Positions 12,701 to 42,700 of a stretch of 64,000 bases of DNA are shown piece after piece. The DNA lies in NCBI RefSeq assembly GCF_036588685.1, contig NC_086379.1, positions 20,708,001 through 20,772,000 on the forward strand. The letters are read 5' to 3'. Position 1 is the stretch's first letter. Every line of letters begins with the position of its first letter. Made by a program: the position numbers and the translations under genes. The stretch comes from Mytilus trossulus (lineage: Eukaryota). Below the pieces are notes generated by a model that saw only the letters and a program-made list of their open reading frames with translations, did not search any database and was not told the DNA's origin.

Positions 12701-15700
12701 TAATTTGATATCAGGTGGTTTTTAATGTTATTTTAAGGCTGATTTATATTATGAGTTTATCTATCTATAAATAACCCGATGAGCAATCAAATGGTAAGCG
12801 TCAGTTTTTGTCCGAAAATGGTTATATTAAAGTAGTAGATGGAATCATAAAACAGACAATGGTATATTAATCAAATGCATAGGCAGATCTAAATGTCCTA
12901 GTGCAGAAGCCTTTCAAAATTAAACTCGACACCTGTTAAACAAGTTCTATTTTGTTTACATTTATAATTCTTTTTTGTTGAACGTATTTTCGATTCAACC
13001 CATAAAATAGAGAGAGAACAAAATATATTAACTGCATAAACGGGTCGTGGCGAGTATGAATGTTTACAATGTGAAACATTTATTGTACATATGAATTATC
13101 CAGATTTAGGTAGGGTCCTTGTTACTTAGTCTTTGGCTGTTTTTTCGTGTCTTGTGTACTATATTATGTGTAAAAAGTAAAATCACAAAAATACTGAACT
13201 CAGAGGAAAATCAATTTGGAAAGTCCATAATCACATGGCAAAATCAAAAAACAAAACGCATCAAAAACGAATGGACAAGAACTGTCATATTCCTGACTTG
13301 GTACAGGCATTTTCAAATGTAGAAAATGGTGGATTAAACCTGGTTCTATAGCGCTAACCCTCTCACTTTAATAACAGTCTCATCAAATTCCGTTACATTT
13401 ACATGATGCGTTAAATAAACAGTCACAATCAATAAAATAGTCAAAATATGGGAACATCAGTCATCATCGTATAACAATTTAACAGGACACAACAACATCT
13501 ACTATCTACGAACACATGGATTGATTTGAGTGTCTGACGTCAGAAAAATTATATACGTCACATAAATTTGTCGTTCAATGTGCATACAATAGTTATCAAA
13601 AGTACCTGGATTATAAACAATTTAAAATTTTACATAGGCAATGAGCGCAGACAGGGTTAAAAAATCAAAAGTATGTAAGAATAAATTACAGAAATCGAAC
13701 TAGTCCAAAAGTTATACATAGAATTTATGAGAATCCAAAACTTTTAAAAGGAACAATTTAAACTATATTATGTGTCCGTTTGTCTTTTAATTTTTAGCCA
13801 TGGCGTTGTCAGTTTATTTTCGACCAATGACATTGAATGTACCTCTGGTATCTTTTGTCCCTCTTTTGTGAAATATTGGTGGTTTGTGGAGAAATACTTT
13901 GATATGATAATTAATAACGAGATAAGCATGCAATACCAAATAAACTAGATCCATAACCGTTATGGAATTATTAAAACTTTTATAATGACGTCATTGAACA
14001 ATTATTGAAGTTGGTCGTATATGTACTACTATAGGTACATGTTCAGTTTCATCAGCTTCATTATCTTGCCTAACTTTCTGCCATTGACAGTGTACCTTGG
14101 ATGTGAACAAACCTTTTCCACAAAAGTGCTGCCTACAATCAGTTTTCCTATTGTCATTTTTCAATTTCAGTGCATTTATATTCAAAGCAAGGGTAAATGA
14201 AGTATAACGTTAACTTCATACATATTCTTGAATATCTATTAAGAATATTGTTCACAATCAAACTTTTTAACGAAGAGTAGTCATGACAAAGTTTCTTTAG
14301 CAAATTTTACGGACTCGATTTTGTTTTTTGGCTGTTGTTGCATATCATATGAATTATACATATATTCTTTTTTGTGTTGTCGTTTATTATAGTTACAAAG
14401 GAGGTCGTTTGCTAGTTATTGATTTACTGATACAACGCACATAGGCACATAATGTTTTTTTTTAGATATTATTGCCTTTCAACTAGTTCAGTGTTTGCCG
14501 TTAGTTCATGACTATCGTATTTACTTTTCGTAAATAGTTCGTTATACATTTTGCCCTTTGTTTTCACAATGTCGGGCCATGTGAGAGCCCATTCTACGGA
14601 ACTGGTGATTTTTGTAATTGCCTATAATTGCTTAAAACCTACTACGTTTGACCTTGGTATTCTTACCACATCTCCATATTTTTATGAAGGATGATTTATA
14701 TGTAAACAGTTATGGTGATAAAATTGAGAATGGAAATGGGGAATGTGTCAAAGAGACAATAACCCGACCAAATAAAAAAACAACAGCAGAAGGTCAACAA
14801 CAGGTCTTCAATGTAGCGAGAAATTCCCGCACCCGGAGGCGTCCTTCAGCTGGCTCCTAAACAAATATATACTAGTTCAGTGATAATGAATGCCATACTA
14901 ATTTCCAAATTGTACACAAGAAACTAAAATTAGAATAATACAAGACTAAAAAAGGCTAGAGGCTCCTGACTTGGGACAGGCGCAAAAATGCGGCGGGGTT
15001 AAACATGTTTGTGAGATCTCAACCCTCCCCTATACCTCTAACCAATGTAGAAAAATAAACGCATAACAATACGCACATTAAAATTCAGTTCAAGAGAAGT
15101 CCGAGTCTGATGTCAGAAGATGTAACCAAAGAAAATAAACAAAATGACAATAATACATAAATAACAACAGACTACTAGCAGTTAACTGACATGCCAGCTC
15201 CAGACTTCAATTAAACTGACTGAAAGGTTATGATTTCATCATATGAACATCAGGCACAATCCTTCCCGTTAGGGGTTTAGTATCATACCATCATAACATA
15301 TATGAGAAGAACATAACCCGTGTCATGCCAACAACTGTTTTTAAAATAAATGTGTTTAGTTCCGACGCAAAGACCTTATCAGTGACTCAATATTAACACC
15401 AAAATATGCAATCTTTAATGACTTGACAACAGTATCGTAATTATATCCCTTCTTAATAAGTCACAATTTATGATTATTATCAAAGCTGTTGTACGTAGAA
15501 AGTTAAATCACAAAAAAACTGAACGTAGTAGAAAATCTAATCGGAAAGTCTACAATCACATGGCAACATCAAATAAAAAAACACATCAAAAACAAACGGA
15601 CAAGAACTGTCATATTCCTGACCTGGAACAGGCATTTTCTAACCCTCTCACTTTGATGACAGTCTCATCAAATTCCGTTATATTAACAATGATGCGTGAA

Positions 15701-18700
15701 CTAAACAGGCATAATAAATACAATAGTCAAAATATGGGTACAGCAGTAATCATCGTGTACAGTCATTGGAAGGTGTAAACTTCCCACTAACACCAAACAC
15801 TATTACACCATACACCTTGTACCATTACACCATACACGTTACACTTTTGCACCATACACCTTACACATTACACCATGCACCATTCCCCATTATATCTTCA
15901 CGATATGAAATTCAAATAATGCAAATTAATTTCAAATATTAAGATTATTATTAATGTTTATGTTTACAATTCGAAAAAATGAAATAAAAAGAACTTCGTT
16001 TTCAGCCAATGAAATGTCGTACACCATCATTCGCACCATTTCAAATCGCACGTTACACAATCACACCATTCCTTGAACACCATAACACCATTCCCCTTAC
16101 ACCATACACCATAGCACCATACACCTTACACTATTGCACCATATAAAATACACCAGAACACCATACACGTTTTATGGGGACGTTTACACCATCTAAGGGA
16201 TGTAACATTTTTAAAAGGAACAAATTAACAGAACACAAACACATCTATCATTGATTTGCGTTGTATTATGTTTAACTATATGGCAGACGTGCAGTACCTT
16301 CGAAAACAAAAGTTCCGATGAGCTTGACATGAACACGATTAAAATTACTTGAATATCCTTATTGTTTCGGAAATGTAAATAACAAACATTCGAGCCACTA
16401 TTATCACAATATTGACATAATATTAAAAGATAAATCTTCATTCAAATCTTAACACTCTAGATTTTCTCGACAGAACTTTGTTGGAAATTTTGCTAATTAC
16501 TTCTTTTCAAATTTGTATTTGATTTTGACTTCCTACTGATCTGATACTTACTTATAATTTTTTTTATCGTTGGTGACCATAGTGTATGACAAATGGTGTC
16601 AAACATAAGAAATTTGTAGTTTTAGTTTGCTTTATGTGATTTTTGATAATATAACCCTGATATTTAAATTAGGTCATTTTGATTCTTTCGGAGAAATATT
16701 GCTATTATGAAAGGAAACACAATTCAAATACATCAAAGAAACGGATAAGTATTAAGAATGTTTAGATCTAACTATTAGACTAACTTTTATTTTGAAGTTA
16801 AATAGTTAACGATACTATGTAAAAAAAGAACATTAAAATATAGTGGAGTTTATAACAGCATGTGAACAAAAATGTTCGCAATTCAAACAGCTTCTTAAAA
16901 TTGTAATTTGGAGTCGTAGGTGTTTTATATTGTATATTGCAAAATTTACATGATATCAATTGTTATTAAAATCTGCATTTGCAATACACATTTACCTAAC
17001 AATACATTTTTTTTTTGCAGATCAACTGAGTCTTGTAGTGAGTGCTGGTCAATCAAAATGGAAAGAAGCTTTTGGTTCCTGTAACGATTCAATCTACTGG
17101 CATCAGCTGTCTAATTACTGTCAGCCTGATTCATGTAATGACTTTAATTTCACAGATACAATCATAAATAAGCCGAAGTTCGGGAGGCAAGAGTATTGGA
17201 TTTATGGATACGTATTAAGATCACCTGTCATCGGAAACATGGGTAATGATTTCATGGTACTTTGTTGGTTGCATCAATACTTTTAAAGCTTCACAAAAGG
17301 ATTATAAGTCTAATATAAGTATACAGATAACATAAGGATATGAGATATGATTGTCTATGATACAACTAACTAAGGTCATAATAAAGTAAAAATAAGCGTT
17401 TTGCCCCCATTCTGATCGAAATAATTTCGTATGTATAGTTGCTATTTATACATTGTGCGTTGTAGTCACTGTGAGTATCTGTGATGAACTGAAAAATCAA
17501 CAATTTCTTGATACTATACTCCATCCGTTATACCGCCAAATATGTCTAAACCCAAAATGGCAATAATCCGTTGTACAACTTCTCTAACCAGTTTTGAATA
17601 TATTTAACTGTATGTAATGCATCGGAAATCCCAAATGTCAAACGAAAAGAGTATATTTATTAAAGTCTCTCTCTGTTAAAGATTTCGATTTAATTAACTT
17701 GTCGCAACAAATAATAGCTATAGTTGGTTTTTTTTCGTTTGCTGGTATGAAATTTTATAAATAACATCAAATAAACAAAACGCAACTTAACCCTTTAGAA
17801 GATAACAATTGCTGTCCAACACCGTATTCATTTGTAAATAAAATTAAAGTCGATTAACAAATATCCTTCTCGTCATTACTTAACAACTGTACTGATATAT
17901 AATATTGCACCGAACCGCAACTCCTTTCAAAGTCGGAAATATTTGTGATATGATGTACAAATTTTATTTTCATTTTTTTGTACTTCCTAAATTTGTCTTT
18001 GTAACAATCTTTTTTTCAACAGAAAAGGCCAATTTGTGGGAAAACTTTGGAGACCGTTACCGATCCGTGTCTGATACGCTTTCGCGCATTCTCAATTGAC
18101 GCACTGCCCGCATGATTTAACTTGATATATAAATGATATAGGATTATGGTATAGATTTAAAATTACACCATTTCAGGCCCTTTTGACACACTGTTTGACA
18201 TGTCATGTCATGATATGATTTTTCATTGTCAGAGGTTGGCAACTACAAATGTGTGTTCAAAGCCACGTTAAAAGATATGATGGTGTTCAAGTCGAATAAA
18301 TGTTAACCCACATTTAAAACATTTTGTAACAGCTTATAGGTTTTGTGGGGCGGCTAAGTACTGATGCAAATGGTTATACAATCATAGGATTTTGCATAAA
18401 CGTTCTTTATGGTGTCCTTAAGCATATCAGAGGGAAAGCCAACATTTTGTTTCACGGTAGCCATCTTGGATTTATAATTGACATAATTTTACTCAATAGT
18501 AGTGATTGAAAAAAGATTTACAACTTGTTTAACGTGATAAAGGTTATTGAAAATTAATAAAGGCAGCAGTAGTATACCGCTGTTCGAAATTCTACAACCG
18601 ATTAAGAAAAAGACAAATCCGTGTTTCAAACTCAAATTGTGGGATTTTAATAATTAAAAAAATGGTGGGTTAAACTTGGTTTTATGGCATGCCAAACCTC

Positions 18701-21700
18701 CCGCTTTTATGCCAATGTTAAATAAAAGATTAAAATGACAACATTACATGACAGGACTACAATAGAAATAAATGGGTGAACCTATAGGACAGAGAAACAC
18801 ACGAATAATAACTAAAAAAAGGTGCCAGGTTTAAATTCTAATAATGCCAGACGAACGTTTCATCCACACAAGACTAACCAGTGACGTTCTGATGAAAAAT
18901 GTTCGAACGCACAAAACAAGCAAAAGGGTACAAAGTTAAAGAGCATTGAGGACAAAAAGTTCTAAAAGGTTAGCCAAATACGGCTTGGGTTTCTGCCTGG
19001 GATGAGAACATCCTTATCATTTAGAATAATTCATACATTTGCAAACAGTATTTTGTTTATAAACTGACCAAATAATAGATAAAAATGATAAAACCGGTGA
19101 ATAACTATAAAATAAAATCTAATAAATAAATAACCTTAACCAGCATATAAAAATTCACAGCCGCGTTAGCCAAATCGATAAACGCACACATTTAAGTGAA
19201 GTCACCTTTGAATTTCTAAAAATTTCCCCAAAATATAGAATAGAATTAGGAAAGAAATCAAGATTAGGTTTGTAATGTAGATATAACATTTATTAATAAC
19301 AATGAAAATTACAATACTAAATAATATCAAATTGTGGTAGTAATAAGTTAATTAATTTATTATTTAGCTATGTCGGAATTTTTTTAAATCAAACTGTTAA
19401 CCAAATAGATCGTATATAAACTATTCAAATACAACTTAAAATTACCTGCAAATATGTAAAAGAGACAGAAATTGAAAAAATAAATTCCCACTTCCGGTTA
19501 CGGTGGTACAGAATCATGCAATCGAGTAATAGAATGGAGGTGAAGATGTGTGATGAAAAAGTCTTTTGAAAGATAGATTATTTTTTAAGATATACAGAGA
19601 GCTCGAATGATGTATTCCTTTTCAATATTGTAATTCGTTCTTACAACTACAGGAACACAATGTTGTACAGTTCAGACCAGCCCTATAACACGTGCATCTT
19701 CAAGAAAAAGTTTTCTAACATCAAAATTGTATACCTCCTGTTGCAGCAATGTCTACTAATTGTTTAAATTGGGTATCCAAAACCCATCTGTTGTCTCCTT
19801 AACAAATCCCACATCCACCCGCTTAGATATTGTTTATGTATGAATACCTGTCCACAAACATGACCAACTTGATGTGCAGCTCGTTAAATGTGCTCAAGCA
19901 GTGACGCTCTGTTAGTTGGAATAGTGCCATACTGTTTAATTCGCGTGCAAGATTTATTGATGTCAAATGTTGTTATAATATCGTACAAAATCACAACAGA
20001 AACCCTATATAAGCTTTACTGACCAAATGCAAATTTCTTTTGCAATCGTCCATACCCCTCGGTTACTTCATCAATTATTTACCATTTCTACTATGCCATG
20101 TATGCTGACTGCTTTCCTTTTTCTTTATCAAGTAATAACAGTGTCACATTCAATCAACATATTGAAAAGGCTAAAATTACTGAGTTAAGACCAGGAGATT
20201 GATCAATTTTGCGAATCAGAAGCCATCGCCATTTTTTTTCAAATGCAACCCAATGTGTTTTTACTTGTAGTGTCTTAAATAGAGATATCACCAAAACCAC
20301 AACATCAGATCTGAGCTGATTTTCAGTTTCGACTCACATCCCCGTCTAGCTGCACTTCTATATGAGAAACATAATTGTGATCGCTTCCTTGTGATTACTC
20401 GGACTACGATTAGCATGGTAGTAATAAGTTAATTAATAGAATTTGTCACAACAATGTGTTCTTGGATTCAGCACCCCTAGCTCTACGGGTTTATGCTTTT
20501 AGGCTAAAGACCATTTAATATTTAATCATGTAATATCTTCACCCGTCAACCGAACCGTATTTAACTTATACTTATTCTGTCAATTCATGATTAAATAGTC
20601 ATTGTTTTGAATGCAAGTTGTTTTAGAAAGATATCCAGGTTTTATGTTCATGAAAACATTAGGAAGTTTAGATTACGTTTTAGATTTTTGTAAACTTGAA
20701 GAGTATATTATTTTACCCTTTTTTACGCCAACATGATTCTTTCATTTGATACTGAGAAATAGAGATTATGGTAAATGAAAGGTGATTTTAGAGATATATT
20801 TAGCTTAGGTTGTGGTCTATGATGTCGACCGCAGCTGTGGTAGGTAAACACTTTGTCTTAAAATAGAAAAAGGCAAACGACATCATTCATTTAACGTTCA
20901 ATTACAGCTTCTTCCAGTTGAGTAACCACAAATATTTCAAGTATCTGATTTTAAGAGATGCACAACACCCATGTTGAATAATGTATCATTAAACTTTCTC
21001 AAAACGTTCTTATGTTGTACTGTTATACCACTGTCCCGGGTTAGGGGGAGTGTTGGGATCCCGCTGACATGTTTAACCCCGCCACATTATGTGCCAAGTC
21101 AGTACCCTGTAATTCAGTTGTTGTCGTTTGTTTACGTGTTATATATTTGTTTTTCATCCATTTTTTTTATATAAATAAGGCCATTAGTTTTCTCGTTTCA
21201 ATTGTTTTACATTGTCATATCGGGTCCTTCTATAGCTGACTATACGGTTTGGGCTTTGATCATTGTTGATGGCCGTACGGTGACCTATAGTTGTTAATGT
21301 TTGTGTCATTTTGGTCTCTTGTGGAAAGTTTTCTCATTGGCAATCATACCACATCTTCTTTTTTTATATTCATGACTTACTACGTTTATAAAATAAAGTG
21401 ATCAACAATATAACCATAGAATGATAACTCAAATATTGTGTGAGTTAAATATCCGAACACTTCTGATAATCAGGCCGAGTGATTATCCTTTTACCAGCTG
21501 TATAACAATTTTTTGTATGTGATACAACTTAATTAAAAGTTTGCTCTCATTTACCAAGATTGTTTATTCAGTATCATTTTATTTCCATGCGATATGTACA
21601 CCATGCAGGTGATCATGCACCTTCTCCTAGGTTCTGTTCACTTGCATTAACACATTCTGTCGACGATTAAAGTACGACTCCATGACTTAAATTAATTACT

Positions 21701-24700
21701 ATCATAGCACTATGATTTCAACAAATGTTAATTATTTATAAAACCGGAAGTAAGTCATCGATCTTAATTTGAACGGAAATGATGTTCTACTACAACAGCC
21801 AGACAAATAAATCTTCATTCACTTCACCTAGTACCTTTCTTATAAATTACAAGCATTATGTATGCAAAATAGACCAAACATTCGATTGTTTTAACTAAAC
21901 AACGGCATTTTGAAAATGATCGAATAGATTTTTTACTTGACTATCCCCTTACTATGATAAAATACACCTAAAGGCATGTTCTTAAAAAGTTTCATGCTTA
22001 TATCACAATTTGCATGATTTGTGTAGTAAGCATCTTAACTAGTCGTATTACATGTTTCACATATTCTATTGAAAATCTGCAATCAAAGTGAATGTAAAAA
22101 TTATGTTAAATTTCATCTAAATTTAACATTGATTGTGCACATTCTTGAGTTAAACATTGTAACATGAGATACAAATTCACTTGAATTTCACACATACCAA
22201 TATTTATTCCATTTTTTCTAATGGCAAAATTGAATAATTTCAAAGATGTCAAGCTTTGTGTCGATATTTAATTTTGAGGTAACTTCTTTTTTTTACAATA
22301 TTTAGGATTTAAAAGAGGATAGAAAAAAAACAGAGGACATTTCAACTCATACGTCGAAAACAAACAGACAACGCCATGGCTAAAACGAAAGAGACCACTA
22401 TACAAACAATGGTAAATAAAACACAACATGGAAAACTAAACACTCAGCAACACGAACCCCATCAAGACTTGGAATGTTTTCATGTGCTCCAGAATGGTAA
22501 GCAGATTCTGCTTCACATATGACATCCGACGTGTTACTCGTGTTATTACAAAAGTTTTATTAGGGAGGTCGCATTCGGGATGATGGCTTCCGTAAAACTA
22601 ACAAAGGAATGACTTCAACTTCACCACTTTGAACTCTTGGTTAAATAGCTAAAAGAGGGACGAAAGATACCAAAGGGACAGTCAAACTCATAAATCTAAA
22701 ACAAACTGACAACGCCATGGCTAAAAATGAAAAGACAAACAGAAAAACAACAGTACACATGACACGACATAGAAAACTAAAGAATAAACAACACGAACCC
22801 CACCAACAACTAGTAGTGATCTCAGGTGCTCCGGAAGGGTAAGCAGATCCTGCTCCATATGCGGCATCCGTCGTGTTGCTTAGCTAACTTGTGACCAGCA
22901 ACCCTCTCTCAAGAAAACCATAATAGGAAAAACAAGGTCTTGAATATCGTGTCAACTGGAAAATATATACTCCGTATACAGGTGCCAATTGGTTGTTGCT
23001 ACATAGAAATGGAAAGTTCACAATTGGGATGTCAAAATCTCTATTGCCATAAAGTTGTCTCTTTTCAAAAAAGTAAAATAACAAACATATTGAGCTCCGC
23101 GCAAAAAAAGTCCCTAATTAAATTGCAAAATCAAAAGCTTAAACAAACGAATAGATAACAACTGTCAAATTCCTGACTTGGGACAGGCATTTGTTTGGTA
23201 AAAAAAGTGGATTGAACCTTGTTTTATATTTAGCTAAACCTCCCAACAACAAATCATTGTAAATTTTTGAATGTGAGTCAAGATATGACTCTTAACTGTA
23301 TTTGTTGTATCTTTGATCTAAATTTCGGTGGATGTACTAGGCCTCGGTGGCCGAGTGGTCTAAGTAATTACTACTGTAATCACTTAGGCTTCCTTCACAA
23401 TACAAAATCGGCCGCCACGATAAAGCCCAAAGGCGGTGCTTACAAATTGCATTAAAACACCAAAAATAAAAATAAATCGAAGGAGGTAGATGCTTTTAAG
23501 TATTGAGCATTTCGAACAAAAGATAGAAACAAATATTTTGGTTATGGAAAGAGTAAACCTTTCTTTTTACAATTTTTTTTCCCTTGCTTTACATTGCTAA
23601 GTGAAAGCTGGCTTATAAAGTATTTAGGACTGGCTATATTTCACCTTTAATTAATACATATAGAAAGAACCTACATCTAAAGGTAATGTTTGACATACAC
23701 ATTTGATAATACGTTAGAAAACTTTTTTTTCAAAATGTCTTCTGTCATCAATAAAATATCGAATCCCATTACTCGAGTAGATACTGCAGGCATTCTAGAG
23801 AAACTTAAAATTGATAATGGAAATGGGAAATGTGACAAAAAGACAACAACCCGACCATAGAGCAGACAACAACAGAAGGTTACCAACATTATTCTATTTT
23901 TCGGTCATTTTGTTCGGTTTGTGTTGCTCAATTACCAATTTGCTGTAACATGGTATCACAAGGTGCTACATTTGTATAATGAAAAAAATCACGATATATA
24001 GAGTTTGAAAATAAGATATATGAACTACTTCCTTTATATAGAATGTTGAAATTAGAATGCAAATACTATTATTAAATTATATTATTGTAGCATGTAACAT
24101 GGAACAGTAAATAGTTATCAAAGGTACCAGGATTATAATTTAGTACGCCAGACGCGCGTTTCGTCTACATAAGACTCATCAGTGACGTTCATATCAAAAT
24201 ATTTATAAAGCCAAACAAGTAAAAAGTTGAAGAGCAAAAATGTATATACTAATCGCGCCTCGCTGATTTGTTTTCATTGACAAAAAATGGCGGATCCGGT
24301 CCACTTTGATTGTTTTCTTTGATCAATCGAGGGAATAGAAAGGCAGACAACGATGGTGATAAGGTTAAATTCTAGGCCAAAACAAGTAGGGCTTTTTATA
24401 GCTGACTATGCGGTATGGCCTTTGTTCATTGGTGATTTGTTTTCATTGACAAAAATGGCGGACCCGGTCAACTTTCGATGTTTTCTTTTATCAATCGGGG
24501 GAATAGAAAGGCAGACAACGATAGTGATAAAGGTAAATTCTAGGCCACACAAGTTGGGCCTTTTATAGCTGACTATGCGGTATGGCCTTTGTTCATTGGT
24601 GACCTATAGTTGTTTATTTCTGTGTTCTTTTGGTCTCTTGTGGAGAGTTGTCCCATTGGCAATATTAACACATCTTCTTTTTTATATATAAAACGAATAG

Positions 24701-27700
24701 TTGTGGTGAAATTGAAAAAAAATCCAAGTGAGGTATATCTCATAAATGAGGGACTCACCATCAGGCAAGGGGTAGCTTTACTGTTGAAGAAAAGATAAAA
24801 AGGGGGGAATCGTTTCAATTGGTACAATTTTTCTAAAAGAGGGTCCCATTATATTTAATGATAAAGCAGATATATACAGGAATAATATATGCTCGATATC
24901 CATATGATGAGGACATACTCTTTTGCCAAATTAAGCTTACATGTCAGTAACTGCTAGCCATCCATTGTTAATTTATGTTTATGATTGGCGTTTTCCTTAG
25001 TTTTTTCTTCATCTATTCTTACATCGGCCTCGGATATCTTTTAAACTTAGTATTAGTCTGCGTATTAATGTGTGCATGTTTATTTCACATTAATAGAGGT
25101 ATACGGTGAGGTTACAAACTCAAAAAACACGTTTAACCCCTTCATTTCCTCCATCCCCCTCCCCATCCCACCCCACCCCCGCATGTTTGCGCCGGTCCCA
25201 AACTCAGGAACCTCTAGCCTTTGTGCTGGTTTATTTTATATGTTATATAAATAAAGTGTGGAATCAATTCCGGTGAACCAGTATACATTATTGTTTAAGA
25301 CCCAGCTGAAGCCCACTATGGTTGCGGCATTATCTGTGTTGAAGACTAATTGATGGCTTTGTGCTGTCTTATATTCTTTGGTCGAGTTGTTGTCTTTTTA
25401 GGTGTCATACCACCAATTACTCCCTCAAATTTAGAACGTATGTGAAAATAGGCCTACTCGGACAAAAAATAGTGCATTTGATGTCATTGTTTTCTTAAAC
25501 TAACCAAAAAATTGGCAGAAATGAAACTTTTGTTGAAAGAACCATTTTGAGCTAAAATTTACTTGTTTATCAGTTTGCATTCAAAATTTAGGATTAATGC
25601 ACTCCATAGTATACTAATTTAAGATTTCCAGAAAACCAGGGGTTATTTTTAGTGGTACCTCTATTCGGAAGACCTTTTCTTTTTTATATGATTTTAAACA
25701 TCTGAAAATTGGCATGTAGAAAGCTGATACATGTACGATTCAGGATATACCTGGATATCTATGAAGTTAAACTTAAGGTAAAATATTTATAAATTTTGAA
25801 AATTGTAAAATTTGATTGAACAGATCGGGACTTTTTAATTGGTGGTATGACACCTTTAGCACATTGGCCGTTTCCTTTACCAATTTTATAGAAATGTTTT
25901 GAATTTGAATTCAACGATATATTTTTTTCTTCTTGTAGGATGCTTCAGTTTGAATACTAGTCTAAAGAGTGGATTTCATCGTGGAAACTTTTCGTTTGGA
26001 GACAATTCCGCCACCAAATGCTCAAGGGCCTGTCCGAATAAAACAGAATATATCTTTATGAGGGTAAGCTACCCAAATTTCAATTGAATCTCAAAATAAT
26101 ATGTTTGTGTTTATTTTTCTGTAGCGTTATGGAATTTTCCATTCGGTCCTACATGATATTTAAGTGCGTAATGCTGCAAGTCATGAATATAATCAATATA
26201 TGTGCTGGTATAGCGTATCTTATAGCGCGTCGGACGCACGACATTTGTACGTTATGTTTTCATTTTTTTCTAACTGTTTACAAAATCGATCTATTATTTG
26301 ATATAATCTTACTTTTCTTTTACATTTTCATATCTATGAATTACAAACCAACGTTTGATTTTTGTTGAGAGAATGAACTTTATCTGAACTGTTATTAGTA
26401 TGTTAATAACTTTAGATTTGGATCCTCAATGCTCTTCAATTTTGTACTTGTTTGGCTTTATAAATATTTTGATATGAGCGTCACTGATGAGTCTTCTGTA
26501 GACGAAACGCGCGTCTGGCGTACTAAATTATAATCCTGGTACCTTTGTTAACTATTTACACCACTGGGTCGATGCCACAGCTGGTGGACGTTTCGTCCCC
26601 GAGGGTAACACCAGCCAAGTAGTTAACATTTCGGTGTTGACATGAATATCAATAATGTGGTCATTTTTAAAAATTTCCTGTTTACCAAACAATGAATTTT
26701 TACGAAAAACTAAGGATTTTCTTATCCCAGGCATAGATTACCTTAGCCATATTTGGCACAACTTTTTGTAGCTTTGGATCCTCAATGCTCTTCAACTTTG
26801 TACTTGTTTGGCTTTATTAATATCTAGATATGAGCGTCACTGATGAGTCTTATGTAGACGAAACGCGCGTCTGGCGTACTAAATTGTAATCCTGGTACCT
26901 TTGATAACTATTAATTATGTGTATACGATTCATTTTAGGATAGAGAATGTCTTTGTATTCCTTTGGTCAATTTTCACCAGCATAACACATATAGTGAAGA
27001 AAATACTGGTGCTTGCAAGAATACTTGCGATGGAAATAGTAGAGACTTGTGTGGCAATGCTACGTCTACTGAAGGAAAGGAGATGTACAGTGTCTATAAA
27101 ATAGTTAGCAGTATGTAATGCATTTAAAATACTCGCAGTTACTGACAGCTAATGTAAAGCCAAAACAATTCATAAAATAATCATGCAACTTACTCTTCCG
27201 GAGCACCTGAGATCACCCCGGTTTTTAGTGGGGTTCGTGTTGCTTAGTCTTTAGTTTTCTATGGTGTGTCTTGTGTACTATTATTTGTCTGGCTGTCTTT
27301 TTATTTTTTACCCATGGTATTTTCAGTTTATTTTCAATCTATGAGTTTGACTGTCCCTTTGGTATATTTCGCCCTTTTTAAGACTAACATATCAATCAGG
27401 ACACACCCAACATCCAAACGATTTCGTTTTAAGACGTATTAAATAGTCAAAGAAAAACATGACCTTGTGTAATGTCAAGATACATGTATCGACAGATTGT
27501 AGAGCCGTGAATGTGCAACAATACTTAGTGTGATTTTAATATGCTGATAACAAAAATTAATACCTATACTTAAAAAAACTAGAGGTTCTAAAGATCCTGT
27601 GTTGCTCGCCTGTATTTACTGATGCTTTGGACATCATGTAAAATGCGATTAAAATCATAATTTATAGTATACGATATCATTAGATACTATAATAATATCT

Positions 27701-30700
27701 AAGATAATAGCAAAAACTCCAAAATTTCCATAAAATTACTAACTCAGGGGCAGCAAAAACAACTGGTTGTCGGATATGTCTGTAAATTTCATTTTCATAC
27801 AAATATGAACGTATGGGAAATGGCAAATTTTCATACTTCAACGAAAACAAAACAATTATGAAACTTTTTGCAAACTAATATTTGCATGTACTATCTTGCA
27901 CAAATGTTAAGTTTTAAAAAATTATGTCAAACTTACAAATTAAACAAACAAAAGACAATAAAGGAAATATGTACATTTTTTTTAACAATTACTGCGATAA
28001 TGATGACGTCAGTATGTACATTAAAGATTTATCCTACCGATTGGACTTAAATAAAGTTAACACTCACACTGCTATCTTTAACAGGAAGCATAATACCAAA
28101 ATGTATGATAAAAGAGATTATTTTTCGTGTCTTATAGTTAATTATATGTTATCAGATGATTACGTTATCTTGTCAACATCTTAAGGGCATACAATACAGT
28201 TTCAGGGGAGGTAATGACGTTGCTAACGTAACTTGTTATTTTCGCGACGTCAAACTGTGACTTATAAGGAAAAGATACAGTTTTCGACTGATTTTAGGTA
28301 TTTCACATCCAATCTTTTATTGTTATATTTGTTTAATTTGTAAGTTTGACATAATTTTTTAAAACTTCGGTTTTCACATGAAAATCTGACCAAACCTTTT
28401 AACAAGGGATATAGTTACGATACTGGTATTAGGTCCATAAAGAAGACATATGTTGGCTTTAATATTGATTCACTTATAGGGTTTTATGATGGTTTAATAC
28501 TAAACCCTTAAGGGGAGGGATTGTGCTTGATTTTCATATGATAAAGACATACTATTTCAATCAGTTTAGTTGAAGTCTGGAGCTGGCATGTCAGTAACTG
28601 CTAGTAGTCCTTTGTTTATTTATGTATCATTGTTATTTTCCTAAATTTATTGTGTTACCTAACATGACATCGGACTCTGTCATCATTTAAACTGAGTTTT
28701 ACTGTGCATATAACAGTGTGTTTCTTTACTCTACATTGGCTAGATGTATAATGTTTCATTTACTGTTATCAGTTTTTTGTCCCTTTTCCATTCCTTGTTA
28801 TCTGTTATAATCCAAATTAATTTGCTGTTTTGCTGCTATTGGAACCCTCATTGCCCCCTTTTTCATCTAAAGTCGCGCTCATGTTGTTTATCATTTAAGT
28901 AATGATTTCCTAACCATCAGTGTTCAATGTCACATTTTATATTATGTTAAGTTATTATTTTTTAGGACGCATTTCAAAAGTGGGGTTTGGAGACACTTGT
29001 ACAAAGACGATTTTGGACGAGAAGAGAATTTACAAATTTATTTACACAACTTGTACTGCCGAACAGAATTATATCTGCGAAAGATTTGATAAATCTAGTA
29101 CGTTAAATTTTATTATGTATTATAAAAAGCCTATGGTGTATTCTGTCTATTTCAGTAGTATTCATAATTATTTTTGTGTCCATAAGAGACAATCTTACAT
29201 TCCATAAATATGCATAGGTACATATGTGCATCAACTAATAAGAAATAAATATCATTGAACTTTTAAAAAAGAATGCAAAATTTTTCGGAGCTTTGAAAAA
29301 TGATACAATATGCAATGCTTTGGTGTGTAATTCTTTAATCAAAGACCGCATTCCAGAACCATACAACACTTTATAAAAGAGTCACGTTTTATGGAAAAAA
29401 AGATAGTGGTTATTAGAAGTTCAAAAATATCTGGTTATTAAACGGAATATATATATTTTCATAAAAGAGAAGACTTATTTTGCCATAACGACATATATCA
29501 TTTATATTGTGTCGTCCCAAAAATACGTTCTTGTCTCATTTTTGTCATTTATAAATATTGCGAGCTAATTTCATTGATAGTGTGTAACAAAAGGCATGTT
29601 TTCATTATACATTTTTTTTTTTTTTTAGCTCAAACTTATCCTGAAACCTGTCATTATGAAACTGTATCATGGAACACTGCTCAAGAAAGTTGCCAGGAAC
29701 AGGGTTTGCATCTTCGGTTACACACTAGCACTACGCCTACATGTTTACAAGGACATAATTTCTGGAGTGGGGATCATATCGTAGATCAAATTGTGTGGGC
29801 AAATGGTATTAACATTTTTGGCCTTTGTTACTATAGCAACATATGCATATGGGAATAAGGTCAAAATTTACAATGTCCTATTCACACTGAATTATAAGAT
29901 ACATTTTACCCATGTTTGCATCAGAGTTAGACACAATACTGAATAGTTTCGTTCGTACTTAGTCTTGCTTTAATGAACGTGACCTGTTGAATTTGATTTT
30001 AAGTTTCATAATATGTTTTACGCTTATAACATACATTAAGGTTTTCACTGGGAGTATATCTGTTTTTGATCAATATTCCTTATATTCCCTTATTTCTTTG
30101 TATATTTTATTATATAGTGTTATAAGTGAGATGTTACTTCTTATAAACTATTTTTTCTTGTTAAATATCCATGTAGATTTTGTTTCCTCAGGAATAGATT
30201 ACCTTTAAGTTAGCTGTATTTGTCAACACTTAAAGGAATTTTTATCTTATATGCTCTTCAACTTCGTACTTTATTTGGCCTTTTTCTTTTTTGGAAACGA
30301 GCGTCACTGATGAGTCTTTTTTAGACGAAATGCACGTCTGGCATTAATACAAAATGTAATTCTGGTATTTGAATTTATTTACAACATCTGGGTTGATGCC
30401 ACTGCTGGTGGAGTTTTAATTCCCGACGATATCACCAGCCCATGCCAGTAGTCAGCACTTTTGTGCTGACATGAATTATCATTGATATGGTCATATTTAT
30501 ATATTAATTGTTTACAAAACTTTGAATTAATGAAATACTAAGGGTTTTCTACCTCAGGAATAGATTACATAAGCTGTATTTGATAAAACTTTTAGCAATT
30601 TCGGTCTGCAGTGCTCTTCAACATCGTACTTTTTTTACCTGTTTTCCTTTTTTTGATTCGAGGGTCACTGATGAGTCTGTGTATCTATGATGAGTTGATT

Positions 30701-33700
30701 TCCTACTTTAGGCTGCAATTAGGAAAGACACAATATCATATATTTAACCTTATTTTGTTATTAATGTCATTTGCTAGAAAGAGGAATACATATAATGCAA
30801 GTTATCGATGGTTTCATATTTATTCAATCATCTTTTTTCACGAATTTGTTCTTATAGTTATCAAAAGTACCAGGATTATAATTTTATACGCCAGACGCGC
30901 GTTTCGTCTACATAAGACTCATCAGTGACGCTCAGATCAAAATAGTTAAAAAGCCAAATAAATACAAAGTTGAAGAGCATTGAGGACCCAAATTTCCGAA
31001 ACGTTGTGCCAAATACGGCTAAGCTAATCTACTCCTGGGGTAAGAAAATCCTTAGTTTTTCGAAAAATTCAAAGTTTTGTAAACAGAAAATTTATAAAAA
31101 TGACCATATAATTGATATTCATGTCAACACCGAAGTGCTGACTACTGGGCTGGTGATACCCTCGGGGACGAAACGGTCTGCTCAATAATATAACTTATCT
31201 TATTTCTATGCCCTCGCTGCTAGGCGTCGGGGCATAAAGTGCTATCCTTGTTCGTCCATCCGTAAGTCCTTTCCGCAATTGGTTTCCGTTCTCTAACTTT
31301 AGTTTGCTCAATCAAATTTTATAAAACCTATCCACAATGCTTATTTCTACAATACACAGATCAAGTTTGAAATTGAGTGGCATTACTTTATCTCTTATTG
31401 AGTAATTTCCTTTTATAAATGAAAAGTTGTAACGTTCATCTAAATAGAATGAAATTATTTTATTAAAAACAACAATATAAAATAGCAAAGAAAATGTATT
31501 TCAGAATATTTATTCCAGTAAAATCTTATATTAAATAAAGATTCACCTATTAAAATCGATGGAAATCCTAGCATATTTGTAAATATACATATTATGCTGG
31601 ATTTGGAAAATATTTGATAACCTCACATATTTGCATGGAATGTGCATGAATGTTACATATATTCCAATGAAAGATATATTATTTTGGGCAAACGAATGAA
31701 GTTGGCCTCAACCGAAAGCGATAAGATTAATACATAATGCCAATTACAATAAAACCAAGATCAAGTTTGAAATCCAGAAACATCACATTATACCGTTTAT
31801 GAGTTATGATTCTATGAATATAAAAAATGCAGTTTTTTTCGTTTCTGTTCTCCTTCTTCAGCTTGTCTCAACTAAATGTTATAAAACTTATACACAAAAC
31901 ACCAAGTTTGGAATTAAGTTGTGTTATTATCCTAGAGTTATGTCCCTCGGTAAACATAAATATTCTTAATCTGTGATGTTCCTTCTCTTGTTGTAGTTTG
32001 CCTCGGCCGAATGTATTTAATCTTTAACACCATGTTTATAGTCACAAGAAAACTGTCAAAATAACGTGAATCTTGCATCTAAATGTGGACGTTGACTCAT
32101 GCATATTTACGAGCTGGGGCATCTGTGACCCATAGACACATTCTGCATTTTTATAACATTCCTTTTGACAATTTTTTAATTGAAGTTTTGAATAGTTTGA
32201 TTTCTCTTTACTCTTGGTAAATTATCTGACATAAATAAATATCTTTCGACTTCGTACGTATATTTTATAGATGAAGAATTACGTTTTTACTTCATTTGCC
32301 CAAGGTATATGAGAAAATCATCGACTTAATATCTTGAACAAAATATCTTAATGAGTTTGATATAACATTATAATAGTAGTACATTTTTCAATATTTCAAA
32401 ATTCGTGAATTATTGAAATCACCTAAAGCCAGCCTTTGCTTGACAGATGCATATCAATTTACTGTGTTTTAGTATTGTTTATGATAACTGCCAAGTATAC
32501 TTATTAAAAGAGTATGATACGTTTCAGTAATTCAAGTAAATCCGACATTTACCTTTGTATCTATCAATTGATTCATACAACTTAGTTATAAAATAATGGT
32601 ATCATTGAAGGACCACAAACATTCTAATTTTTAACAAATTGTAATGGATAATTCTATAAATAATCTTTTTGATACAAAATTTTAGATACCTTACCGACAG
32701 ATGCTTTGTGTCTGAAGTTAGTAATAACTGAATCCGGTTCCAGTTTTGAGACTGAAAATTGCAGCACTTCATTGTATTCATTATGTTGTAAGTACTTTTT
32801 TAACTTTTGTGTATGTTAGTTACAACAGAAAAGTTGCAACATGTAGGCCTCTATTTGTAAATCTTTTATATCAAGTTGTGAAATAAAAGTAAAATAACAA
32901 ATTTAGAGAACTCAAAGGAAAATTCAAAAACAAAAAGCCCATTATCCAAAGGAAAAATTGAAAGGTCAAACGATTGAGTTTATCCGTTCGGTCTTAAAAT
33001 TTAGATATGAAATGATCTATATTTTAATTATAAATATATTGGAATTTATTCAATTCAAAAGCTATATCATGACGTCGGGGGATTTGTATTTGATGTATGC
33101 AGAATTGCCATTCGTTTAATCTATTATCAAATAGATAAACCTCCGACACAAAGCACTTGTAATCTGTATCTGAATAGAATTAAATTGTGAAAAAACACAT
33201 GTATAATCTATACCATTAAACGAGAAGATCTCATTTTATGTGACGCTTCTCTTTGTTCCACAATGAATAAATCATCATGCCTTTGTTTCCTTTAGGTACC
33301 ATGCATAGTCAGATTTGTCATCCTTGCTTATGATTATTCCGTTTGTGTTTTGGGAGAAAACCATAGCAAAGGCGTCCGGATATCGTTTCCGTCATCGGCT
33401 AGACTTTTAAGTAATAGACTAGAATTCGTTTAGAAATTACACATAGTTTTCATTAAGGTCGAAATGGGGGTAACTTCATGACGTAACGGTTAAATTTCTT
33501 GACAATGACGTTGACGGTAATATTTGGTCAGAAAAAAACTTCATTATTAAAATAAATATATTTTTAAAATTTTAATCGGTCAAAATTGCATGATATTCTA
33601 CATTTATATTTATTCAGGTTTGTACGATTAAACAAAAAAAACTTGTTATATCATTAGTACTTACCAAACGAATATAATAATTTACTCAAAAAAGGAATAT

Positions 33701-36700
33701 TAATATGGCCACTCTCGGTGAGTGGAGCCTTTTCGGTCAAATTTGGACGTTAAATCAAATGCCACGCATGATGAAAGTTCCAAGCTCTCTGTCCGTTAGG
33801 AACCCTTGTAACAACTCTTTGAGGTGACCACTGGCGAGGAAAAGTTTCTGTTCCTATCAAGTATATCCTCACGTTCCAGTAGCAGTCCAAATTTCCCCGA
33901 CCGCTATCCCAGTCGACCTCTTTAGCATCACCAAGCATTTATACTTATTCCTGTTTTGAACATGAATGAAATATTTGCCACTGGATGTAGAGCAGTCAAC
34001 AATCAACCCATTAAGGTATAATTGTACAAAAACTTTCTTCCTCAATAACTATTTCATAAACTAATACAATACAAAACAATTTAAAGTTGTAATTATACCC
34101 GACCTACGATAGTAGAGGAGCATTATGTTTTCTGGTATGTGCGTCCGTTCGTCCGTCCGTCCGTCCGTCCGTCTGTTCGTCCGTCTGTCCCGCTTCAGGT
34201 TAAAGTTTTTGGTCAAGGTAGTTTTTGATGAAGTTGAAGTCCAATCGACTTCAAACTTATTATACATGTTCCCTATGATAGGATCTTTTTAATTTTAATG
34301 CCAAATTAGAATGTTTACCCCAATTTCACGGTCCACTGAAAATAGAAAATGATAGTGCGAGTGGGGCATTCATGGTTTTTTTTTTACAAAATAAAACATA
34401 CAGTTGATAAATGCATGATTTGCTGAATTTGTTCGTTAACAAAAAATACGTTAAAAAGATAGGCAGAGGATACCAAAGGAATATTAGTCATACTCATTAG
34501 TCCACAACATAGTGACATTGTCACATTTTAAATGGTACAGGTGCTACCCACATTTACGATTTATTTAAATTGGAACAGATGTTGAATGTCATAATTATAA
34601 AGGTAGCAAAATACTCTATTTCAAAGTCAAAATAGCCATAGAGGTTTACTTTGGTTCTTTAATATCTGATTATATACGTCAAATATATCTTACAGCTAAG
34701 CAACATCACACGTCTAGCAGTAAGAATGATGAGGCTTTCACAACACCATCAACTCAGTCTTACAGTTCAACAGGTTTGTTTATAGTAAGCAGTATACCGT
34801 TGTCGGCAACTGATAGCAATATTCATCATCTGTAAATTGAAAGAAAATAATGTTATCAATTCGAAAAGTGAAACAGTACATAGGACCTTCACGCCTAACC
34901 AAAATAAGCACCACCGGAGATATACCTTCAAGTCAAAATGATAAGGATAAAGGAAAAGGTGTCATATGAAAGTACCTCTTTTTCTTCGTTGGTGTAGTCT
35001 TTTTTAAGGGAAGTTACACCATGCAAACTAATAGCTCGGAAATATGAAAATGCAGGATATCTTGACGTTCAAACTCCGTTTTCAACGACTATTTAAATTG
35101 CCTTAGAACTGTGTATGGTCTGTTGCAATAGAAATTCGTTATACTACCTTACAAAAAAAATTTTAAAAATGTGGTAAGAGAAATCTGCACCAAAACTAAT
35201 TGTAATGCAACATCGTTTGTAACGTTCATTTTGATTTGATAACATCTCTAATTTTTATGACATCAATTCACAATTGATGCTATAAAAATGTACGCACAAG
35301 CGCATAGGACATATGACAGATTTTAAATAAGTCTTTTAACGTTGTTTTTTTATGATTTTCATTAGAATGAAGACAACAATATTGCATGTTAAGCTCCGAC
35401 GGCATCAATTAGTGATTTGATGATTGCAAATATCCGTTTACTGGATACGCTAACGCGTCGCGAGTAAACCATATTTGCGATCATCAAATCACCAATTGAT
35501 ACCGTCGGAGCTTATAATACAATACAGTTATCACCCAAATTACGTTTGTTTTTAGTAAGTAATTATACGTCATCGAGATGCTTTCAACAACGAATAAAAC
35601 CCTTTGCATGAGTAGCAAGCTGTAAAATGCCTCGAAATAATATATGAAAAACAAAATTAATGGCCAAATGATGTTCACGAAGGGCTAGAATTTGCCCTTA
35701 GATTTTGATGTGGGTTTTTTCATACATAAGACCACAGTACTACATATTTCAAATTAAAATACTTGTGACAATACTGTTAAAACAAAAATACATCATTTGG
35801 CATTTTCCTCTAAAGTCTAAAGCTTTTATTGTTTATAAATTACACAAAATCAGCATAGTTTGACAAAATTTTCAAAATGGACTTTTAAGGTTTGGAGAAT
35901 GTTATGTATATTAGCAGAACTGATTTAGTTAGCGTTCAGGTTTTTGCAATAAGCCCCTTTACGAACAAAACTGTGACCTTTTTGGTGTTTTATGATATTT
36001 AATGTTTTATTGCGCCATAAGAATGATAAGTGAATCTTGTAAAATGTATAACCGAAAAACGAATTTATATATAGTAACAAACGAGAACCAGTGAATTAAA
36101 GGCTCCTGATATGGGAAAGTAACACACACAAATAAAGCGGGATTTAACATGTTTAGAGGAGATCATGATCTTTAGCAATGCTTAAATATAAGTATGAACA
36201 GATTGTAAGACCGTAAATGTACGATAGCGTTATTAAATGAGTGTTTTCGTATTGATCCGTGATCATGTATATATTCCAAGTGCAGTCGCATTCAGGAGAA
36301 GAATACTGCATTAGTTCGAGACTTAGCCAAAGGCTATTATAACTGATCGAGACCCAATGCGACTGTTCGGGGTACATACTACAGGATGAACATGAAAACA
36401 CCTTTATAAACGAATGACTTAAGATAACCGCAAAAAACGACTGGGGATAAACACGACTGCAGGACGACTCATAAATGATCAATATGAACTATTTGGGTAT
36501 AATTTTATGCAATAATCCTTAAAATCAATAATGTGTGATTATCGCTCTTTTATTCGACATTGAAAAATAGCCCCTCTCGATTTTAACACGATTTATCTCC
36601 GTTTAATATGACGTCGTTGACGAATGAAATAAAATGGCAACGACAAGGTAAAGAGCACATAGACTAGAGTGAGGACGAAAAGATCATTACGCTTACATAA

Positions 36701-39700: not shown

Positions 39701-42700
39701 GAATAATAGTTTATGTTTGCAAAACAACAAATGAAAGCAGAGAACTTTACTAACCTTTACATACGAATGAGACATGTTTCCTAATAGATTTACAAATAAG
39801 ATAATGAGTCAGTTCTCCTGTCTAAACTGCAATGCAGTGGTTAACTAGAGGAAATTCTTCGTTTTTCAATCTTTAAAAGTACGATGTAGGTGAAAAGACT
39901 TTTAATGCTTTTTATTGATTAATTAATGACTTCACTTCGATGGAAGGACTTACATATTTTTTCATATATTAAGGTCGTACAACGTACGGAAGTTCATTTC
40001 ACACAAAGTCAGATTCAGTTGAACAAAACACAAAACAGTTTGGTAAATATGTATTTTTTTTAGGTTTAATTTTTTTTTTTTACTTTTGTTCTACTCTTAT
40101 TCTCTGTAACGAATTCTCAAACTGAAGTATTTCAATAAATTTAACATAAAATGATGAAATTTGTTTAAGTCTATGCATGAGTATGACGCTTTTCTGTACA
40201 TCATTGTATAGTCGCCGTCACGTAAAATTGGCACCATGATTTTTGTCAAAATTTTCTTAAATATCGATCGCGTTTTCTCGAGATCATGTTTTTCAAATAG
40301 CGGAATAAAAAACCAATCCAAATATATACTACTGTCCTACCTTTTATTGTGTTTGCACAGTATAATCCTGACCTTCACAAAATCCAGGATTATTTTGTAT
40401 GGTGGAATCCGACATTGTTATTACCGGAAGTGTTGCCGTCGAGTCCACGTGCTCTCAATTTTCTTGTGTCTCTCGGAGCTGTGCGTCATCTTTATGTAAA
40501 AAGCGCGGGAAATCGTATCATCAATGACAATGATATAACCGGAGAGTAACGAATGTTATGTAGTAAGGGATCCTCATAGAAACCAAGATGGCGGTTTTAC
40601 AATGAAAACAATCTTGAAAAATGTGAAGGTCAGGATTATACAGTGCAAACAAAATAAAAGGTAGGACAGTAGTATATATTTGGATTGGATATTTATTCCG
40701 TTAATTGAAAAACATGATCTCGAGTAAACGCGATCGATATTTAAGAAAATTTTGACAAATATCATGGTGCCAATTCTACGTGACGGCGACTATAGATCCT
40801 CCAGTATTTTTAAAGTAAAAAGATAAAACACTTTTTTTCTATAATTGATCTATTTCCAATGATAAATTGATATTTTTATTGTCTTCATCGACACAACAAA
40901 TATTTTATTTAATTTGATAACTTTATCATTTGCACAATTTCTTTTGAATTCATCATAAATCCATAACGTATAATAAAAGAAGCTATATATTTCATTCGGT
41001 TAATGTTGATCGAAAGAATTTGCTTTTGATGAATTATCTAGTTTTTTGGTGACATAGTATTTGCAGGAAAAACAAATTCAAGCTGCTTTATATTCTCAAA
41101 CATCAGAAGTGCATTACTCAGTAGCACGCGCATATTTTAGTTTATAATTTTAAATCGAAATATTCTATACATACTAGTTTTAATATATACAAAGTAAAGT
41201 AACTTACAAAAAAATATCAAATGCTAGTTTATCTTACATAATATTGATAATTTCACAATATCATACGTAACTTTTTACTTGCATCTTTTAGCGAATAAAA
41301 CGCCCATCATGTGCTATGTTTATTTTTTTTATAATAATATCGTCTTTTTAAATTTTACAAACTTGAACAAAGTTTATGTTTGCAAAGCAACAAGATAACC
41401 AGATGACCTTATTCAACTATTTAACGATAAGGTAACGATTTCTACGGTAAAAAGGACTAGACATATATCAATGTAAATTATTTATTTGGATACCAAAGGC
41501 TTAAAGTATTTGTAATATATTTTAAGGTCGTATAACAATAAGGAGTCCTGTAAACGCAGAGTCTGGTTCAGATGAGGATAAAACAGATTTCAGTAAGGCT
41601 TTAATTTCGTAGCGCTTTAAATATTTCTTGTTTTTTTCTTTCATACTCTGTGACAAAAGAGGGGCTACATATACGAGAGGAACATTCAAATTCATAAATC
41701 GAAGACTAACTAAGTGATTTTGATGATGTAACATTTCTACTAATTGATTTTGAAAAAAAATGTAAAAAATGTTTAGAACAAAGGAATTGATTTGTTACGA
41801 AATCGAAATAAATTATAATAATTTAAAGATTTACATGTGATGACCTATGCTTTTTACCATAATGGTTTTCATACCTTTTTTTAAAAACATATATCTATTA
41901 AATCATGTATAGTAGTAAACCGCTGTTCGAAAGTCATAAATCGATTGAGATAAAAAAAAAAAATCCGGTGTACAAGCTAAAACCGAGGGAAACTCATCAA
42001 CTACTAGAGAAAAACAACGAAACAACAGAATCTTAGCCCTGTTTTGACAATATAATCTCTTTTTTTTTAGTTCCATTAGTTGCTGGGAGCGTTGGAGGAT
42101 TTGTAGCAATTGTGATTGTTGTAATAGTTGTGTGTATCATTCAGAGAAGGTAAACATTAGCACATAAATTTTTACCAATGATATAAATCCGAACGACCCG
42201 TTTATGTGTCATCAAATAATGATGCATTGCCATGAATAATCATGCATTATTTGTGCATTACTTATCTTAATTCATTTACTCTCTTTAAGATAAAAAAAAA
42301 ATGATAATTTTGTATGCCAGGCGTATATTTTATCTCAATAAGACTCATCAGCGCTGATTGAATCAAAACAGTTGGATAACACGAAATTTTAGATCTTAAT
42401 AAACAAAAATTCCCAAACATTGTGATAAATAAGATCCTGTCAATCTAAACCCTTATACATCAATACATTGCATGTGAAAGGTTTCACATTTTTTGTCGTT
42501 AACTCGTTATATTTTTAATCAATATTCATTCTATTGTGTCTTCTGATATTCAAATGAAAAATAATATAGGAATTTAAAAATTAAATATTAAAAAATACTG
42601 ACCATAAAGGAAAAATCAACACTGAAAGCCCCCAATTCAAATGGCAAAATCAAATTCAAATACTTCAAACGAACGGAAACAACTGTCATATTCCTGACTT

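Follow-up and report, generated by a model that had tools for sequence, protein, structure and literature searches.

A WSC domain set within a split C-type-lectin-like domain of a molluscan membrane protein, with predicted crosswise pairing of the lectin halves

We analyzed a stretch of 64,000 nucleotides from the Mytilus trossulus genome (contig NC_086379.1, positions 20,708,001 to 20,772,000), called the window below, whose plus strand carries a gene for an uncharacterized protein, LOC134724772. Its ectodomain has the order N1-WSC-C1-N2-C2, where N1 and N2 are N-terminal halves and C1 and C2 C-terminal halves of C-type-lectin-like domains (CTLDs), and at the sequence level we regard the nesting of the WSC domain within a CTLD as secure. 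Based on a structure model, we further propose, with a probability of roughly 0.58, that the halves pair crosswise as whole halves, exon 2 (N1) with exon 7 (C2) and exon 5 (C1) with exon 6 (N2), the latter pair forming a circularly permuted CTLD. Few extracellular folds have been studied as thoroughly as the CTLD, and we know of no earlier case of a naturally circularly permuted one. A literature search, which covered few subscription papers, retrieved no account of a CTLD with an internal WSC domain and none of a CTLD in circularly permuted form. The architecture is real, conserved and built from known parts, and has apparently not been described before. It represents a whole-domain insertion at the long loop of the CTLD that has been kept across molluscan classes, and this family of candidate recognition receptors can escape tallies of bivalve lectins that are based on Pfam.

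Exon chain and domain parts of the ectodomain

Searching with exon 2 retrieved a 100% identical protein, P0001, which is the RefSeq annotation model of LOC134724772 and provides the residue numbers used here. A 10-exon model set up by a splice-site test (exons with AG/GT ends) translated without internal stop codons; P0001 is identical to it over exons 2–7, in agreement with the exon chain of the initial annotation, which was made from the DNA letters alone, and contains two additional short stalk exons. The chain is known from the DNA and the annotation models, and exon 5 is present in all five RefSeq isoforms (P0001 and four sister models). The WSC cassette is bounded by phase-1 introns, as initially noted (Table 1), but this is not special to the cassette, because seven of the nine introns of the 10-exon model are in phase 1.

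The product of exon 2 shows the landmarks of the CTLD N-half that had been claimed for it, namely strand β1, helix α1 with C41 in a W34-x2-A37-x3-C41 motif, the WIYG motif of β2 (residues 80–83) and a conserved S-P89. Residues 31–93 of the clam homolog P0061 matched the CTLD N-halves of 3l9j and 8umo_K (E = 0.0014). Exon 5, which contains C205, C223 and C231, was the best stretch in matches of a 30-sequence profile to CTLD C-halves (1wk1, E = 3.6e-5; tetranectin 1tn3, E = 1.1e-4); its assignment as a C-half stands, with the motif corrected from C-x7-YICE to C-x7-C ending in YICE. Exons 6 (C245, C259, C276 and W283) and 7 (C305, C322 and C330) matched NKG2D, CD94 and CD69 contiguously when a profile of 30 homologs was compared with solved structures, which bears out the proposed second CTLD. 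The same comparison matched exons 3–4 to Wsc1 (7pz2, E = 3.1e-9) and Kremen1, and the eight cysteines expected of a WSC domain are found at residues 96, 122, 126, 140, 142, 162, 166 and 174.

Comparing a profile of exons 2+5 directly with one of exons 6+7 yielded a probability of 95% and a score of 45, with 60 column shuffles reaching at most 13.4, and the alignment paired C205, C223 and C231 with C305, C322 and C330. This result was significant with 23–24 rows per profile, whereas with six sequences the hhalign score of 13.7 fell below the shuffle maximum of 20.2. The introns after exons 2 and 6 are at equivalent positions, because they lie 14 residues past W80 and 13 residues past W283, respectively; the WSC site is thus the position of the intron splitting the second CTLD, as initially recognized. 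The profile matches together with the alignment of the two exon pairs indicate that, in sequence, a CTLD is interrupted by the WSC domain between β2 and β3. Evidence for the lectin fold comprises two sets of halves, conserved cysteine and tryptophan residues, and matches of both profiles and structures; helix α2 is irregular in the mussel protein.

Pfam found WSC alone (residues 94–175) in the ectodomain of P0001, as had been expected of domain scanners; this match to PF01822 (E = 1.6e-5, 25.5 bits) is just below the cut-off of 27.8, and those of P0003 and P0004 are above it. Lectin_C gave no row for P0001–P0004 and was not matched by single exons searched separately, and phmmer with P0003 alone gave no significant match; the second CTLDs of P0054, P0056, P0061 and P0062 passed the Lectin_C cut-off. 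In our family alignment (A4), the set of C41, C231, C259 and C330 is complete in 18 of the 30 rows, which range from mussel to chiton. Left out of this alignment were P0017 (a model fused to a BTB gene), P0021, P0058 (two repeats), P0069–P0073, P0075 and P0076, as well as sister isoforms, matches of fewer than 180 residues and five repeat proteins consisting of WSC domains or CTLDs alone.

Pairing of the lectin halves

The main AlphaFold2 model was built from 30 sequences, and the pairing was read from alignment ranges and the DSSP string; a model from six close sequences was set aside (predicted local distance difference test value, pLDDT, of 32). The main model shows pLDDT values of 59–96 over residues 21–330, with 77–94 over exon 5, and a predicted template modelling score of 0.55 even though only about 56% of the chain is ordered, which suggests one rigid ectodomain. 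We aligned the model with 48,161 structure chains and consider here the 50 matches listed, of which four are WSC rows and 46 CTLD-like rows. In all 46 CTLD-like rows, one complete CTLD chain spans exon 2 to exon 7 (starts 1–24, ends 332–340; Z 6.5–8.1, root-mean-square deviation (rmsd) 3.0–5.7, 87–115 residues aligned), and none is confined to approximately 22–236 (exons 2+5) or 240–335 (exons 6+7). The four CTLD rows of a further structural comparison also run from exon 2 to exon 7. Thus, the predicted model departs from the initial annotation, which had exons 2 and 5 fold together, and pairs exon 2 with exon 7; by prediction, this is the outcome that the initial annotation had named as refuting it. 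Tetranectin residues 58–181 align with model residues 22–335, giving a spacing of 99 residues between the α1 and β5 cysteines, as in the tetranectin-variant chain 3l9j_C, and the alignment end points place C41 and C330 on these two cysteines, which form a conserved disulfide in CTLDs. C19/C117 of E-selectin and C21/C119 of TC14 fit the same register. The disulfides predicted by the model are C41–C330 and C231–C259.

The DSSP string shows long strands where the β2-β2' hairpins would normally turn back; residues 282–294 do not form a hairpin but a strand interrupted at a single residue. The extended residues 227–232, 235, 240 and 243–250 fit one hairpin across the junction of exons 5 and 6. Sequence features agree with this reading in part. 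The hinge in exon 6 is short and poor in glycine: 21 of 26 rows have a spacing of 11 from β2 to the next tryptophan and two of 26 have glycine, compared to a spacing of 12–14 and glycine in four of seven canonical repeats. W80 and C96 are 16 residues apart in each of the 19 countable rows, with a conserved proline at 89; the chiton protein, which is not countable, has an insertion there. Co-divergence was 0.47 for N1-C2 and 0.10 for N1-C1, an order retained in 17 of 17 jackknives and 297 of 300 subsamples in an analysis that ignores relatedness.

In the proposed structure, a β-hairpin would join the last strand of exon 5 to the first strand of exon 6, two long crossover strands (approximately 77–100 and 282–294) would tie the lobes into one rigid unit, and the WSC domain would be located at the long loop of the inner lobe (exons 5+6). 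Such a protein may have arisen by duplication of a compact, calcium-independent two-exon CTLD, entry of a phase 1-1 WSC cassette into the middle intron of the first copy, and opening of the β2-β2' hairpins into an intramolecular swap.

Several observations weigh against crosswise pairing. The topology comes from one model, AlphaFold can mis-pair tandem repeats, and the Z-scores of the CTLD rows are middling (at most 8.1) with an rmsd near 4. Moreover, the best 50 Foldseek matches of the full-length model were WSC folds only, with no CTLD among them and all at E >0.001. Co-divergence of the second N-half was 0.25 for N2-C1 and 0.21 for N2-C2, an order that held in 152 of 300 subsamples and was the opposite among the 12 most diverse rows, and the β2' spacing of exon 2 itself (12) is inside the canonical range. 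A short link from a C-half to the next N-half is not diagnostic either; we dropped linker length as a proof of the hairpin, because the C231–C259 distances in the family (22–35) overlap those of five canonical tandem junctions (33–39) and P0058 has a shorter link of 19 residues at another junction, from C2 to the next N1. Finally, exon 5 is absent from three close homolog models (P0002, P0019 and P0020), and P0040 and P0042 end after N1-WSC-C1.

If these gene models are right, they suit nesting in exon order, in which the WSC domain occupies the long loop of a CTLD formed by exons 2+5, next to a separate compact CTLD formed by exons 6+7. This arrangement, which we consider possible but doubtful, would have the simpler history and agrees with the contiguous match of exons 6+7 to NKG2D, CD94 and CD69. 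Among eight canonical CTLD repeats in P0048 and P0059 (counting a partial fifth match in P0059), seven are also covered over their full length by the exon 2+5 profile, compared to none of three WSC-only controls. Because the N-halves are homologous to each other, as are the C-halves, sequence profiles cannot separate the pairings, and the structural rows confined to either exon pair that would be expected from it did not occur among the 46. Annotation errors may account for the shortened homologs: the P0069 model is shortened, and exons 2–5 were found in the DNA of its locus. Exon-loss patterns are opposed, since P0021 and P0030 keep N1 and C2 and P0040 and P0042 keep N1 and C1, in gene models that are unreliable.

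A smaller swap, exchanging only β1-α1 of exons 2 and 6 and leaving β2 of exon 2 with exon 5 and the WSC domain nested there, appears unlikely to us. The aligner reports first and last residues only, and segments of about 26, 34 and 39 residues also add up to the 87–115 aligned; residues 41–70 have the lowest confidence of the ectodomain (59–72), and exon 6 lacks helix α2 in the model. However, P0061 and other distant homologs keep canonical α1-β1'-α2-β2 segments in both halves, which leaves little room for a crossover after β1-α1, and the long strands are located at 77–100 and 282–294. It is far less probable still that the flanks of the WSC domain are decayed remnants without a lectin fold, leaving a protein with a WSC domain and one CTLD. 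The absence of Lectin_C matches in P0001–P0004 and of exon 5 from three of the ten closest protein models would agree with decay, but the joint conservation of C41, C231, C259 and C330 largely refutes it already. In addition, exon 5 is modelled with high pLDDT values, and exons 2 and 5 each need a cysteine partner elsewhere because they contain an odd number (three). We favor crosswise pairing of whole halves, by which the mollusc-wide family would probably keep a trapped state of 'permutation by duplication', with the loop of an outer CTLD (exons 2+7) holding both the WSC domain and a permuted CTLD (exons 5+6). If true, the protein would be a single-chain, intertwined, three-lobed sensor which domain scanners read as WSC alone.

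Relatives and comparison with known systems

A profile search of 1.84 billion representative sequences gave 44 matches, and we examined the 23 new ones of at least 180 residues. Of these, five were repeat proteins with WSC domains or CTLDs only, and the others contained all or part of N1-WSC-C1-N2-C2. Named sources among ten relatives looked up were Mytilus, Mizuhopecten, Tegillarca, Mercenaria and the chiton Liolophura; proteins of scallop, clam and chiton again show the five-part order, and the Tegillarca model is without C2. Five relatives are each encoded by one uninterrupted frame on a contig of 1,153–3,087 bases, from which we infer that they are spliced transcripts. Contig C7 of the M. 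trossulus genome has family matches at six locations and at least six gene-like copies, and the exon borders were the same in two paralogs checked at the DNA level, which fits the exon shuffling suggested initially.

A tandem paralog lies just upstream of the window (G000:C7:20664753-20699362; L004 and L005), with a 27-kb gap between exons 5 and 6; in its RefSeq model, P0017, it is joined to a BTB-domain gene, likely by an annotation error. More paralog clusters are located at G000:C7:4446152-4563131 and 2682791-2723750, and the cluster of L006 and L007 is annotated only from exon 6 on (P0069), with exons 2–5 present in the DNA. P0058 contains the five-part unit twice, with a first N-half lacking β2 and a very short link between the units. 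In the mussel models P0002, P0019 and P0020, exon 5 is skipped cleanly in frame, by real skipping, gene loss or annotation error. A mostly molluscan Atlas cluster of proteins of about 236 residues (Lectin_C 96%, PAN_1 51%; score 0.80–0.81) may hold a similar nesting, because PAN is a structural relative of WSC; we treat it as a lead only.

The best matches of the lectin lobes in sequence and structure among those listed were NKG2D, CD94, CD69, LLT1 and CLEC5A, which likewise lack EPN, QPD and WND motifs. NKG2D-type receptors combine a type II membrane topology with a single contiguous CTLD, whereas the mussel protein is of type I, both of its CTLDs are split, a WSC domain is inserted and the β2-β3 segment is shorter. 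Snake-venom C-type lectin-like proteins and dimers of carbohydrate-recognition domain (CRD) 4 of the mannose receptor, chains of which type also appear among the listed structural matches, have CTLD lobes joined by a β2-β3 swap, which involves two chains and the long loop only and leaves each core intact. The NC1 domain of collagen IV exchanges a short segment and has no inserted domain, whereas the mussel protein is predicted to exchange whole C-halves. In the accessible part of PMC3779223, the tandem C-type-lectin-like subdomains of collagen IV NC1 are listed as segment-swapped within the chain, as an outlier.

Kremen1 and Wsc1 resemble the mussel protein in the eight cysteines, the WSC fold, the single membrane passage and the Ser/Thr stalk, and differ from it by their free-standing WSC domain. 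Among the matches listed, the WSC rows reached Z 10.6–12.1, with Kremen1 at Z 11.1 (rmsd 2.2, 89 aligned) and Wsc1 at 10.8. The β1-β5 topology of WSC places the domain ends side by side (PMC9024836, as far as accessible), which makes it suited to insertion. The accessible text of PMC10140915 describes uncharacterized bivalve proteins combining C-type lectin (CTL) domains with other domains, WSC being named among the extras; nesting and cross-pairing are not described in that text, its architecture figure may include a member with WSC and CTL, and WSC was not found in one of its supplements. In the parts available, PMC4581086, PMC8242945 and 10.1101/2023.01.19.524809 merely mention WSC proteins.

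Calcium motifs, possible function and gene layout

EPN and WND were absent from the 18 ectodomains searched, and a single QPD (P0001, residues 55–57) is located before β2 and is not conserved; the features of a Ca2+-dependent CRD, a long loop with EPN or QPD and WND on β4, were not found. The initial annotation assumed that the WSC domain had replaced a Ca2+ site, but the second CTLD, without any insert, also lacks the long loop and these motifs: W283 and C305 are 22 residues apart (22–27 across homologs), compared to 36–44 in six canonical repeats. Because the motifs are missing in both lobes and the link between exons 6 and 7 is short, the parent CTLD was likely calcium-independent already.

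A receptor role is suggested by the Ser/Thr stalk, the single transmembrane helix and the seven tyrosines of the tail, and the product is likely a single-pass type I cell-surface receptor. Judged from its sequence, it would most likely be a calcium-independent recognition receptor signalling via phosphorylated tail tyrosines. Most of these tyrosines are conserved among close Mytilus homologs, and three are followed by L or I at +3; tyrosine-motif signalling receptors recruit SH2 proteins by phosphorylated YxxL/I/V motifs of the cytoplasmic part. The cytoplasmic tails of distant homologs differ or are missing. The stalk would be O-glycosylated, and the receptor may signal or endocytose through the phosphorylated tyrosines. 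According to the accessible text of PMC9024836, some fungal WSC proteins bind glucan, Kremen1 binds the protein Dkk1, and Wsc1 is without an obvious glycan pocket. Mapped by cysteine register on the profile alignment, three of the 11 aromatic residues of the Wsc1 cluster are kept in the mussel domain (F114, Y186 and Y189), and its CGG motif reads CGN in P0001. The loss of most Wsc1 surface aromatics weakly contradicts the initial assignment of the mussel WSC domain to the glucan-binding type. We give a protein ligand about even odds and regard β-glucan as a doubtful candidate; other glycans or matrix would account for the remainder.

Table 1. Exons of the gene in window coordinates
Feature	Positions	Strand	Remarks
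First exon, signal peptide, used by P0001	11490..11550	+	One of four similar first exons
Exon 2, CTLD N-half N1 (residues 21–94)	17021..17242	+	Phase 1/1
Exon 3, WSC first half (residues 95–136)	25939..26063	+	Phase 1/0
Exon 4, WSC second half (residues 137–193)	26939..27110	+	Phase 0/1
Exon 5, CTLD C-half C1 (residues 194–237)	28966..29097	+	Phase 1/1; predicted partner exon 6
Exon 6, CTLD N-half N2 (residues 238–296)	29629..29805	+	Phase 1/1
Exon 7, CTLD C-half C2 (residues 297–330)	32686..32787	+	Phase 1/1; predicted partner exon 2
Exon 8, Ser/Thr-rich stalk	34696..34773	+	
Optional 23-codon stalk exon	39974..40042	+	Absent from some RefSeq isoforms
Optional 22-codon stalk exon	41527..41592	+	
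Transmembrane exon	42071..42149	+	
Last coding exon, disordered acidic cytoplasmic tail, seven tyrosines	44207..44618	+	

Four homologous first exons for signal peptides were found, the one in Table 1 and those at 719–782, 7444–7504 and 12556–12616, all of them open throughout and with a phase-1 end; they are possibly alternative promoters. Two of the four are used by RefSeq models (P0006 and P0001), and three lie inside tandem duplicated blocks (5970–8047 vs. 11540–13171), with a remnant donor near 5975. The two optional stalk exons are related to each other and are included or skipped among RefSeq isoforms, a choice that would alter how far the ectodomain stands above the membrane.

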